Origin: a virus
Lineage: Duplodnaviria > Caudoviricetes
Reading direction: 5' to 3' (one strand)
Virus record (IMG/VR): IMGVR_UViG_3300038393_002209
Location: 372 to 64,371 of that record
DNA length: 64,000 nt
Made by a program: the position numbers and the translations under genes
Shown: positions 41,566-46,216 of the stretch, in pieces
Position numbering within the stretch: position 1 is the first letter of the stretch
Layout: every line of letters begins with the position of its first letter
The notes under the pieces: model-generated
What the model was told of the DNA's origin: nothing
Databases searched by the model: none
The model's input: only the letters and a program-made list of their open reading frames with translations

Positions 41566-42156
41566 ATGATGGTGGAAACGGATACCGCGGTCGAGTACCG
41601 GCCGATCCCCGGGTTCCCGAACTACGAGATCGGCTCGGACGGGGTCCCCTACTCGTGCTGGCCGGGCGCCCCGAGGACGCCCCTGAAGTCGCGGCTGATC
41701 CGGGGCTATCCGGCCTTCGACCTCCGGCGGGGCGGGAAGAAGTTCACCCTCAAGGTCCACCGGGTCGTCATGCTGGCGTTCGTGGGTCCGTGCCCCGAGG
41801 GCCAGGAGGTGCTCCACGGGGACGGCGACCCGACCAACCCACGCCTGGGCAACCTGCGTTACGGGACCAAGCGGGAGAACGCGGCGGACCGGGACCGCCA
41901 CGGCACCCACGGCCGGGGCGAGCGGTCGGGCCGGGCGAAGATCAGCAACGCCGACGCGGCCTACATCCGCTACCTCAAGGACGGGGGCTGGAAGCTCCGG
42001 GAGCTGGAGGATCGATACGGCATCACCAAGGCCAGCCTCAGCTACATCATTAATAGGAAGACGTTCACCGAGGTCCCGGACTACGTCCCCGCCGAGGGGG
42101 AGGTCTGCCCGGCCCCCGGCGGCCCGGGATTCGCGGGCCAGCTCTCGGCGGCTTGA
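41566..42156 (+). CDS. HNH homing endonuclease (NUMOD4-HNH type with C-terminal HTH)
   Basis: YRPIPGFPNYEIGSDG; VHRVVMLAFVGPCPEGQEVLHGDGDPTNPRLGNLRYGT. Confidence 0.9.
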   Translation: MMVETDTAVEYRPIPGFPNYEIGSDGVPYSCWPGAPRTPLKSRLIRGYPAFDLRRGGKKFTLKVHRVVMLAFVGPCPEGQEVLHGDGDPTNPRLGNLRYGTKRENAADRDRHGTHGRGERSGRAKISNADAAYIRYLKDGGWKLRELEDRYGITKASLSYIINRKTFTEVPDYVPAEGEVCPAPGGPGFAGQLSAA

Positions 42157-42198
42157 AACCGGCCCGGCCCCCCATAGGATTGCCCAGTCGCTTTGGCG

Positions 42199-42231
42199 GC
42201 CGGATTCCTAGCCGGATTCCTAGCCGGATTC
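42199..42231. repeat. 12-bp tandem repeat (x2.7), putative integrase arm sites
   Basis: GCCGGATTCCTA x2 plus GCCGGATTC. Confidence 0.75.
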
Positions 42232-42345
42232 GCCGCGTGGCGGGTCCGGTTTCCGGCTTCCTGGAGCAAGGGGGCCTCGCCCCGGAACGTCCGGAACCCC
42301 AGACGCAAACCGATTTCCTGTCTGGATTTATGGGCTCGTGGCATG

Positions 42346-42420
42346 GAGAGTCGAACTCACATGGGGGTAGCCCCCCGGAGGATTTTAAGTCCTCTGCGTA
42401 TCCCGTTCCGCCACGTCGGC
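42346..42420 (-). tRNA. tRNA-Leu(UAA) lacking the 3' acceptor strand (attP core candidate or pseudo-tRNA)
   Basis: GCCGACG acceptor 5' strand, D arm TGGCGGAACGGGATACGC, GAGGA-CTTAAAA-TCCTC anticodon arm, long variable arm, GTGAG-TTCGACT-CTC; sequence then diverges with no CGTCGGC partner. Confidence 0.8.
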
Positions 42421-42477
42421 CACGGCCTTGAATCCTAGGGAATTTGAGGGGATGGGGGTTGGGATCGGGCGACGATA

Positions 42478-42497
42478 GCCGGATTCCTAGCCGGATT
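42478..42497. repeat. second cluster of the 12-bp repeat (x1.7)
   Basis: GCCGGATTCCTA GCCGGATT on the other side of the tRNA fragment. Confidence 0.75.
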
Positions 42498-42528
42498 GGA
42501 CCGGGAAGAGGCCCCGCGGAGGCGGGGC

Positions 42529-43704
42529 ATGGGACGACAGCCGCAGGTCCGTCCACGTCAAGGGTACTGGTACAGCGAGGCGGGGGGCAAGGGCCGGAAC
42601 TACGGCCGGGTCGGGGAGGTGTCCAGGCTGGAGGCCCAGCGTCGCCTGCTGGAGGCCCTCCACGCCCCGCCGGAGCCCTCCGAGGCCCCGGGAGGGCCTG
42701 GACGCCCATCCACGCCCACGATCGCCCCTGGGGGCTTCCAGGGGGCTTCTGCGGGGCCGTCCGTGGACGCCCTGGCGGAGACCTACCTGGAGTGGGTCGC
42801 CAGGCACCGGGCGGCCAAGTCCCTCTCGGTCCAGCGGGGGCACCTGAAGCGGTTCCGGGACGCCTACGGGACCCGGCCGGCCCTGTCCATCACCGCCGAC
42901 GACCTGGAGGCGTTCCAGGCGGATCTGGCCCGTGCCTACCCGCCCGTCTACGTGCGGAAGCACTCGGTCACGGTCCGGTCGATGGTCCACCTCGCCGCCC
43001 GGCGTGGCTGGCTCCCCCCCGGGTTCGACCCGTTCCGGACGGCCGAGCACGTCAAGGTGGGGCCGAGGCCCCTCCTGGAGTCCGACCTACCCACGCCCGG
43101 GGAGGTCGCGGCCCTGGAGGCCGAGTGCGTCCCCTGCATGCTCGACATCCTGCGGTGCTACCACGCCACCGGCGCCCGGACGTCCGAGCTGATCGACGCC
43201 AGGGTCCGGGACTACCAGGCCGGCATCCAGGCGCTGGTCCTGGGCCGGCACAAGCGGGAGAAGACGCTCAAGGACCCCCTGCCCCGCACGGTCCAGCTCA
43301 ACGCCGAGGCCGCCCGGATCATCGGCCGGCTCTGCGGGGGCCGTCGCCCGGACGACCCGATATTCCGCCGCGAGGACGGCAGGGCCTGGACCCTCGAAGC
43401 CCTCAACCACCGGGTCAAGGCCGCCACGGTCCGGGCGGGGTTGCGGGAGGGTATCACCCCTTATTCATTCCGCCATCTTTGGATCAGCGAGGCGTTGATG
43501 GCGGGCCTGGACATCGCCCTGGTGGCCCGGATGGCCGGCACCTCGGTGGCCATGATCGAGAAGGTCTACGGGCATTTCCGGGGGCAGGCCCTTGCCGAGG
43601 CCCAGGCCCGTGTGGACCGTTACCGGAGACAACTCGCTACCCCCGAATCCCCGGAGGACCCGAATCCGGATTCCGAACCCAAGTCCTATCGGCGAAAGGG
43701 TTAG
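42529..43704 (+). CDS. int: tyrosine recombinase / phage integrase
   Basis: TGARTSEL, PYSFRH, MAGTSVAMIEKVYGH catalytic motifs; N-terminal core-binding domain. Confidence 0.92.
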   Translation: MGRQPQVRPRQGYWYSEAGGKGRNYGRVGEVSRLEAQRRLLEALHAPPEPSEAPGGPGRPSTPTIAPGGFQGASAGPSVDALAETYLEWVARHRAAKSLSVQRGHLKRFRDAYGTRPALSITADDLEAFQADLARAYPPVYVRKHSVTVRSMVHLAARRGWLPPGFDPFRTAEHVKVGPRPLLESDLPTPGEVAALEAECVPCMLDILRCYHATGARTSELIDARVRDYQAGIQALVLGRHKREKTLKDPLPRTVQLNAEAARIIGRLCGGRRPDDPIFRREDGRAWTLEALNHRVKAATVRAGLREGITPYSFRHLWISEALMAGLDIALVARMAGTSVAMIEKVYGHFRGQALAEAQARVDRYRRQLATPESPEDPNPDSEPKSYRRKG

Positions 43705-44991: not shown

Positions 44992-45843
44992 ATGTCCCAA
45001 GAGACGCAGTTCGCGGACGTCTTCGCGGCGTTGGCCCAGGAGTTCGACCAGGGGGAGGTCAAGCAGCGTCAGGGGCAGCGGGGGACGATGCTGTCCTACA
45101 TCACCGCCCGGACGGCCATGAACCGGCTGGACAACGTCGTCGGCCCGGAGAACTGGGAGGACGACTACGAGGTGATGCGGGACAACTCGATCAAGTGCAA
45201 GCTGACCCTCAAGCTGGTCGACCCGGCCACCAAGGAGTGGGTGTCCGTCACCAAGGCCGGCATCGGGGTCACGGCCTCCAGCGTGGGCGAGGACGCCGAG
45301 AAGGGCGGCGAGTCGGACGCCTTCAAGCGGGCGGCGGCCAAGTTCGGCGTGGCCCGCTACCTCTACCGCGACGGCGTGCCCGACTTCGTCCGCGATGCCA
45401 ACGGCGGCCAGGAACCCCAGGCCCCTCCGGCCCAGGCGCCACGCGGCGGCGGTAACGGCGGGGGCGGCTACCGCAACGGCAACGGGGGCGGTAACGGCTA
45501 CCAGGGCGGCGGGAACGGCGGGGGCCGGCCGCAGGGCAATGGCGGCGGCAATGGCGGCGGCCAGGGCGGAGGCCGGGACTTCGGGCCGCCCAAGACGGCC
45601 AAGCACCTCTGGGCTCGGGCCAAGGCCGAGGAGGAGAAGCTCGGCCCCGACGGCAAGGGGGAGCTGATCGAGTTCCTCGTCGGCTGGACCGAGAACGCCA
45701 TCGGCACCAAGAAGATCTACGACCTCCCGGACAACGCCATCCCGGACGCCTTCGAGGCCCTCATGGGCAAGGTCGCGTCGATGCGGGGCGTGCCGTCCGG
45801 CGGGGGCGGCGAGCAGTGGGAAGGGGACCGCGGGGGATACTGA
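44992..45843 (+). CDS. Rad52/Rad22-family single-strand annealing protein (Sak-like)
   Basis: LSYITARTAMNRLDNVVGPENW...EKGGESDAFKRAAAKFGVARYLY; Gly/Asn-rich linker. Confidence 0.9.
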   Translation: MSQETQFADVFAALAQEFDQGEVKQRQGQRGTMLSYITARTAMNRLDNVVGPENWEDDYEVMRDNSIKCKLTLKLVDPATKEWVSVTKAGIGVTASSVGEDAEKGGESDAFKRAAAKFGVARYLYRDGVPDFVRDANGGQEPQAPPAQAPRGGGNGGGGYRNGNGGGNGYQGGGNGGGRPQGNGGGNGGGQGGGRDFGPPKTAKHLWARAKAEEEKLGPDGKGELIEFLVGWTENAIGTKKIYDLPDNAIPDAFEALMGKVASMRGVPSGGGGEQWEGDRGGY

Positions 45844-45901
45844 GCCCCCGGCCGACCGGCCCGAGCCGGCCGGGGCACCGGAGCCGCCGTGGTCCCCCGA
45901 C

Positions 45902-46216
45902 CCGGCGGCCCGGAACCTCCGGGCAGAGCTGCTGAAGCTCCTCGAAGAGATCGCCCGCCTCCAGAACCCCCTGTCCAGGGCCAGGAAGATCGACGGCAAG
46001 CAGATCGGCCAGGCCCTCTCGGGGGTCGCCCACCTCGTCAAGCAGGCCGGCGGGCCGGAGATCCACTCGGTCTCGCTGTGCGACGACGTCGCCCTCCTGA
46101 CGCCCTACCTCGAAGAGGCCCGGGCGATGAAGGCCAGGCTCATGGGGTGCTCCCTGGAGCCCGGACCCGACGGCCCATCCGACGCCACGCGGGCCTTGCA
46201 GTCCTCCCTGTTCTGA
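45902..46216 (+). CDS. hypothetical protein, start codon not identified
   Basis: Open frame NLRAELLKLLEEIARLQ...SSLF* with typical codons but no ATG/GTG near the 5' end. Confidence 0.4.
   Translation, partial: PAARNLRAELLKLLEEIARLQNPLSRARKIDGKQIGQALSGVAHLVKQAGGPEIHSVSLCDDVALLTPYLEEARAMKARLMGCSLEPGPDGPSDATRALQSSLF

Follow-up and report, generated by a model that had tools for sequence, protein, structure and literature searches.

What is the role of a piece of a tRNA gene that lies beside the integrase gene (int) of a tailed phage and carries the 5′ rather than the 3′ part of the tRNA? We addressed this question for a 64,000-nucleotide (nt) stretch of viral DNA, hereafter the window, which covers nearly the whole of the 64,371-bp IMG/VR virus record IMGVR_UViG_3300038393_002209 (Caudoviricetes). 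An earlier interpretation made from the letters of the window (the sequence-only reading) had proposed a phage attachment site (attP) carrying the 5′ part of tRNA-Leu(UAA), and our analysis supports it, as the same geometry of int, arm repeats and tRNA piece was found in homologous planctomycete loci. With a probability of about 0.78, we consider the site to be the attP of a temperate tailed phage with a probable host among the Isosphaeraceae, targeting tRNA-Leu(UAA) with reversed polarity, a reading that is well supported by analogy to relatives in integrated form. The features concerned are:

42420 to 42346, minus strand: tRNA fragment, nt 1–75 of an Isosphaeraceae-type tRNA-Leu(UAA), assigned by BLAST and by ARAGORN after a 3′ end was added; proposed common core of attP
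42529 to 43704, plus strand: int, a tyrosine integrase of 391 amino acids from the ATG (PF00589, E 2.7e-11)
42476 to 42498, plus strand: two tandem candidate arm repeats, TAGCCGGATTCC and TAGCCGGATTGG, just upstream of the int start
42197 to 42231, plus strand: three tandem candidate arm repeats on the far side of the core
42307 to 42328, plus strand: degenerate pair of the arm-type repeat (68% identity; repeat family D1), past the tRNA block by ~20 nt
42332 to 42345, minus strand: non-tRNA sequence CATGCCACGAGCCC in place of the tRNA 3′ end (RNAfold; Rfam alignment)

The virus record has direct terminal repeats and a completeness rating of 100%, and the window, with a GC content of 65–74%, encodes a large terminase, portal, major head and tail proteins, an Erf-like annealing protein and a ribonucleotide reductase. 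The record is a complete free tailed-phage genome and its site therefore represents the free (unintegrated) form, as the sequence-only reading had gathered from the surrounding phage genes.

The fragment comprises 75 of the ~85 nt of the tRNA, lacking the last ~10 nt, namely two T-stem bases, the 3′ acceptor strand and the discriminator. Its parts, read from the sequence, are:

nt 1 onward, minus strand: 5′ strand of the acceptor stem, GCCGACG
minus strand: D arm, with GG in the loop
minus strand: anticodon arm GAGGA-CTTAAAA-TCCTC, with the loop CTTAAAA (42383 to 42389) between the 5-bp inverted repeat GAGGA/TCCTC
minus strand: variable arm with the 5-bp stem GGGGG/CCCCC
minus strand: T arm with the stem GTGAG, the loop TTCGACT (42349 to 42355) and then CTC of the returning strand

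All internal stems of the fragment are intact and every stem pairs, in line with the earlier description of a tRNA-like sequence complete from nt 1 through the T-loop and devoid of the 3′ acceptor strand. After the CTC, host genes read AC-CGCCGGC-A (with CGTCGGC in L072; loci and genomes are cited by our own labels), whereas the phage reads CATGCCACGAGCC. The native fragment does not form the cloverleaf with paired acceptor stem of a functional tRNA gene. ARAGORN, which the sequence-only reading had proposed as a check, made no call on the native fragment and called tRNA-Leu(taa) once a 10-nt host-type 3′ end was added. The best Rfam match to the fragment was tRNA-Sec with 31 bits and an E value of 0.003, below the gathering score of 47. 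Being on the minus strand, the fragment would be transcribed divergently from int.

The int frame is open from a TTG at 42496 and scores 44 bits against PF00589 (cut-off 27.1). Its start lies 109 bp from tRNA nt 1, confirming that the tRNA piece adjoins int. Repeats of the form AGCCGGATTC(CT) with at most one mismatch occur in five copies starting at 42198, 42210, 42222, 42477 and 42489, and only three further one-mismatch matches to AGCCGGATTC are present in the 64 kb. The proposed repeats on both sides of the core were thus recovered as 3 + 2 copies confined to the two flanks, and we regard the AGCCGGATTCCT repeats as candidate integrase arm sites. The degenerate pair at 42307 to 42328 is weak and may be a product of chance.

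At E ≤ 1e-10 the integrase has 257 homologues, for which the organism, where the source names one, belongs to the Planctomycetota, and the identical integrase (P0003) is present on six contigs. Arg217, Lys242, Arg315 and Tyr347 show at least 90% conservation across 28 homologues (alignment A1) and are, on our own reading, the putative catalytic residues. Many tyrosine recombinases have G-H-S before the catalytic tyrosine. Within this family the motif at that place is invariantly G-T-S (alignment A1) and the HxxR position reads Y-S-F-R; the assignment of catalytic roles to these positions is likewise our own reading and provisional.

Scanning species-representative genomes for integrase homologues yielded 32 loci; the homologues that span most of the protein have 33–55% identity over the best segment. 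Most loci for which the region upstream of int was recovered display two tandem 10–13-bp repeats immediately ahead of the int start (motifs include AATCCGGTAC, GAATCCGGTAA and AAAGGGGTAA); 60–200 bp past these repeats follows a tRNA piece that is encoded on the opposite strand, its 5′ end pointing at int. The tRNA targets are nearly always Sec, Ser or Leu, with an apparent Asn in L008, and far-side arm repeats matching the int-side motif were found in L009, L074, L075, L128 and L129.

Reversed polarity was assigned to loci harboring a full tRNA beside int, which is tRNA-Sec in L015–L017, L019, L021, L023–L027 and L031, and tRNA-Ser(UGA) in L018 and L020. For four genomes with a full tRNA-Sec beside int (G123, G122, G527, G528) the other junction was located on a separate contig of the same genome, where the host DNA runs into tRNA-Sec nt 1 to ~40–42, after which comes unrelated DNA with an arm motif equal to the int-side motif 110–180 bp further in. 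The displaced 5′ fragment matches the int-side copy with 100% identity in G123 and letter by letter, as read, in G122, G527 and G528. In G123 the outer flank of this junction encodes a GAF histidine kinase and a sigma-54 activator, and the inner flank cargo-like enzymes. In G125 and G126 the int-side copy is the only tRNA-Sec match in the genome. Furthermore, among the genome loci the integrase nearest to that of the window (50% identity) is encoded by L007, a whole 4.6-kb contig. Its int is accompanied by a 47-nt 5′ fragment with 100% identity to nt 1–47 of an intact tRNA-Ser(CGA), which the same metagenome-assembled genome (MAG) carries on a different contig; this fragment and the intact gene are a reversed-type attP/attB pair, like the arrangement of the window.

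Standard polarity, with the 3′ part on the int side, was found in L008, L009, L010, L011, L012, L013, L077 and L116. The piece spans from the anticodon loop, or slightly before it, to the tRNA 3′ end, and in L008, L009 and L011 an intact tRNA lies ~6.4 kb off at the other end of a small island. One of these loci, L010 (CADDYU010000043.1), is a Methylococcaceae-labelled contig with a planctomycete-family integrase beside a tRNA-Ser(UGA) 3′ fragment, a combination that could stem from mis-binning or from an exchange across phyla. A maximum-likelihood tree of 27 integrases grouped the loci with a full tRNA beside int into a clade of 13 (support 95/99), whose members derive from Gemmataceae, Singulisphaera and others, and placed the window in a separate clade of 9 (97/98) mixing both polarities. 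The sister of the window in the tree is the weakly supported (86/65) L009, a standard-polarity 6.4-kb island in tRNA-Leu(UAA). Four tRNAs are thus found in both arrangements: Leu-UAA as 5′ fragment in the window versus 3′ fragment in L009, Sec in the 13-member clade versus L011, Ser-UGA in L018 and L020 versus L010 and L013, and Ser-GCU in L113 (full tRNA beside int, polarity ambiguous) versus L012, L077 and L116. As both arrangements are spread across the integrase family on the same tRNAs, polarity appears to be a property of the attP content and not of the enzyme.

Two further observations concern the tRNA-Ser(GCU) loci. In L113 of genome G005 the int next to the full tRNA-Ser(GCU) is broken, and a further full copy of this tRNA is present elsewhere. 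Just downstream of tRNA-Ser(GCU) in several Isosphaeraceae (L113, L119, L012) we observed TGCTACC-N4-6-TGCTAC repeats, which may be arm sites of another element family using the 3′ end of the same gene.

How would integration with such an attP proceed? In the proposed mechanism the tyrosine integrase would attach to the AGCCGGATTC(CT) arm repeats flanking the core and catalyse an exchange between this tRNA-like segment and the tRNA-Leu(UAA) gene of the host. Since the phage copy stops at nt 75 and has no 3′ end, an intact gene would arise anew at the junction next to int, made up of phage nt 1–x and host nt x–85 and with phage DNA in front of it. The far junction would keep the host promoter in front of a dead copy truncated at its 3′ end, which would end in CTC-CATGCCACG and leave no acceptor stem possible. 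Accounting for both ends, the predicted attR reads CCTAGGATTCAAGGCCGTG-tRNA(full) joined to non-phage DNA and the predicted attL reads host DNA-tRNA(nt 1–75)-CATGCCACGAGCC. The earlier claim that integration re-forms the tRNA on the phage side is thereby supported by analogy, through the reversed junctions in the four genomes and the L007 pair. For the window itself we infer the integration mode, the host identity, the crossover point and the transcription of the re-formed tRNA from phage DNA.

The outcome at the junctions would be the same wherever in the block the exchange occurs. For the crossover point we favor the anticodon loop CTTAAAA, since the repeated tRNA blocks of the relatives end 0–8 nt past this loop and the enzyme of L009 uses the same anticodon arm. 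The T loop TTCGACT is a somewhat less likely candidate, suggested by the identity block ending 3 nt past it and by the same stem-loop symmetry. With the T loop as overlap region the block would be expected to end there, by analogy to the short distance between block end and crossover loop in the relatives.

We next turned to the host. BLAST matched the fragment to tRNA-Leu(UAA) in 106 of 121 genomes from the Isosphaeraceae, to which the MAG with L009 belongs, with the best matches in G045 and G057 (92–93% identity, E 1e-24). Among 400 sampled genomes of other Planctomycetota none matched at E ≤ 1e-18; the Isosphaeraceae therefore remain the best matches, and a member of this family is probably the phage host. 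The match to planctomycete tRNA-Leu(UAA) anticipated for positions 42346–42420 was found and narrowed to one family. Most Isosphaeraceae genomes contain a single full-length tRNA-Leu(UAA) match, indicating that the gene is usually single-copy. A separate case is L109 (G034:C4:2586000-2605999), an Isosphaeraceae chromosome with four tRNA-Leu(UAA) pieces within 14 kb, in which a 5′ fragment (nt 1–59) lies downstream of three 3′ fragments in an order unlike a simple tandem array, and no homologue of the window's integrase is nearby.

Phages carry tRNA genes and pseudogenes, and the fragment might accordingly be a decaying phage-borne tRNA-Leu gene without any role in integration, placed beside int by chance, with the real attP core elsewhere. 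Such decay would fit the finding that neither ARAGORN nor Rfam calls a tRNA at the fragment and that no identical host tRNA exists in the collections scanned. However, the fragment occupies the core position known from the relatives, flanked by arm repeats and turned with its 5′ end to int, and it differs from a tRNA by a single clean replacement of the 3′ end instead of scattered decay. With its stems intact and none broken, we do not regard it as a decayed sequence. A leucine tRNA for UUA would also match the codon usage poorly, as the phage barely uses TTA (3 of 15,673 codons in 52 window open reading frames chosen by GC3). Together, these points make decay very unlikely.

Several observations weigh against the site being a reversed-polarity attP. 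The block runs ~36 nt past the anticodon loop, unlike that of every relative, which means either a different crossover site or that part of the block is a relic; with a crossover in the anticodon loop, nt 40–75 would be dispensable and may have been inherited from an ancestor that was of standard polarity or full-length. Between the fragment and the best host genes, 5–6 of 75 positions differ, comprising the acceptor A5, three D-loop positions, one spacer base between variable arm and T stem and one T-loop base. The spacer base varies among hosts too, and the differences appear to fall at host-variable positions or in the D loop. No exact match to the 73-nt block was present in genome or viral contigs, none to the 34-nt 5′-half pattern in viral or metagenome contigs, and neither attL nor attR of the phage was detected in exact-match scans of the genome, viral and metagenome collections. 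A degenerate pattern from the anticodon to the T arm likewise gave no match in metagenome contigs; the host may be unsampled, or its allele may differ from the phage copy. Around the 30 best-matching tRNA-Leu(UAA) genes no homologous int was found within 1.5 kb, except in the standard-polarity island L009. Finally, a sigma-70 consensus scan of the tRNA strand over 42100–42600 revealed no promoter upstream of the fragment, with the limit that this consensus may not fit planctomycetes, and by eye only TAGGAT was found 11 nt upstream of the fragment, without a −35 element. Separately from these points, GAGAATCCGGAGAATCC upstream of the tRNA of G024 resembled arm sites and was ruled out, as no int is nearby.

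The acceptor difference bears on whether function would be restored at all. Nearly all Isosphaeraceae examined have GCCGGCG with CGCCGGC, and combined with the phage GCCGACG this would give an A-C mismatch at pair 5:68 of the chimera. The attP might thus target tRNA-Leu(UAA) without restoring its function, either by disrupting the gene or by yielding a defective tRNA. A precedent is the tRNA-dependent lysogeny of actinobacteriophages, which combines a ~10-bp core with a separate complete phage tRNA of the same isotype (PMC10865867), and which resembles the present case in having attB in a host tRNA gene and one non-functional junction copy. That system needs the short core and the complete phage tRNA, whereas here the block spans 75 nt and the window holds no credible phage tRNA gene, which argues against tRNA-dependent lysogeny. 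Moreover, a matching host type exists, as G024 (L072) carries GCCGACG/CGTCGGC. A non-restoring attP is therefore quite unlikely.

The sequence replacing the tRNA 3′ end could have a function of its own. CATGCCACGAGCCC can pair with GGCCGTGGC at 42419–42427 or with CGTGGCG inside the tRNA, and the alternative TGCCACG/CGTGGCG pairing pointed out earlier indeed exists, both in RNAfold and in the Rfam tRNA-Sec alignment, which is built on CGUGGC/GCCACG pairing with the substitute 3′ sequence. A 9-bp stem, GGCCGUGGC/GCCACGAGCC, brackets the fragment exactly; it may have arisen by chance in GC-rich DNA. The RNAfold minimum free energy amounts to −43 kcal/mol (z −2.5), with 1 of 200 shuffles folding as well. 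As a side observation, with GGCCGTGGC upstream of tRNA nt 1 and GCCACGAGCC after the block, the closing stem is present only in attP and not in the predicted attL or attR.

The exact bracketing, the folding stability and the end-to-end alignment to the tRNA-Sec model could point to an expressed tRNA-like RNA closed by this stem, with a role in the free phage as a decoy or processing signal. The Rfam score is below the gathering threshold though, much of the stability comes from genuine tRNA hairpins, a nearby 6–9-bp complement is not rare in DNA of 70% GC, and the sigma-70 scan found no promoter. We consider an RNA of this kind highly improbable.

A reversed-polarity attP would have consequences for tRNA expression. 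Host tRNA-Leu(UAA) genes are preceded by TTGACG-N17-CAT(G/C)AT, and by eye we identified TTGAC(T/C)-N17-TAAGAT upstream of the tRNA in L016, L017, L019 and L024. In the window, the phage-side promoter claimed by the sequence-only reading was not recovered in the scan described above and is a logical requirement of the model, not an observation. We regard it as unlikely that lysogeny puts the single host tRNA-Leu(UAA) under prophage control and, as a separate idea, that the nearly full-length block is an attP caught switching polarity. In the first case, the 5′ body of the gene and all of its upstream DNA would be replaced by phage sequence without a recognisable promoter, and the prophage state would govern how the very rare UUA codon is decoded. 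The bldA-like rewiring of translational control proposed by the sequence-only reading is a speculative suggestion.

Regarding known systems, Zhao and Williams 2002 (J Bacteriol 184:859) reportedly described an integrative element with reversed tRNA target orientation, and the standard tRNA-targeting attP of Williams 2002 (NAR 30:866) is said to cross over at the anticodon loop or the T loop, with Islander classes A and J. With the standard tRNA attP the site shares the tyrosine integrase, candidate arm repeats on both sides and a tRNA core, and the relatives of the window likewise cross over in or beside the anticodon loop. In contrast to the standard, the window carries the 5′ end and lacks the 3′ acceptor strand, and the tRNA is therefore not restorable at the usual junction. 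Like the reversed-orientation elements, its attP holds the tRNA 5′ part, the gene would be re-formed on the element side and the host 5′ part with its promoter would be displaced; unlike them, it belongs to a complete Planctomycetota tailed phage and its block comprises 75 of ~85 nt rather than half a tRNA.

Islander lists 159 islands with a 5′ tDNA fragment and 3,760 with a 3′ fragment (~4% of 3919; PMC4383910), agreeing with the earlier premise that most tRNA-targeting elements carry the 3′ part. Archaeal cases, including CalSub-E1 in tRNA-Ser, have a 5′-distal polarity termed 'considerably less frequent' (PMC6563490); they resemble the window in polarity and differ in their archaeal hosts and other integrase families. 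The reversed-orientation element of Zhao and Williams is cited in passages of PMC6563490 and PMC1635311. Reversed polarity is thus rare and already documented, and the window is a further example. Less ordinary are the unusually long block and the use of both polarities on the same tRNAs by one integrase family.

Within the phage genome, an HNH_3 endonuclease gene (41566–42156, plus strand) directly adjoins the far arm of attP. At gathering thresholds Rfam found no tRNA anywhere in the window. ARAGORN reported two overlapping long 'tRNAs' (Gly-tcc and Ala-ggc) at 45823–45985 on the minus strand, overlapping or adjoining the end of the Erf-like gene, and we rejected them as probable false positives for want of Rfam support there. 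An integrase search of viral contigs yielded no close relatives. G530 is a distant relative of the phage via its portal protein (38% identity) and contains no integrase of the window's family.

For an uncultured planctomycete phage, the analysis gives a well-supported attP and a likely host family, the Isosphaeraceae. This helps in assigning a host, and it may also provide an integration tool for a phylum in which genetic tools are scarce. The analysis further reveals a widespread planctomycete integrase family that uses type II tRNA genes (Sec, Ser, Leu), with one apparent tRNA-Asn, in both polarities. In one whole clade of this family, the often sole detected tRNA-Sec gene is made dependent on 5′ sequence supplied by the element.

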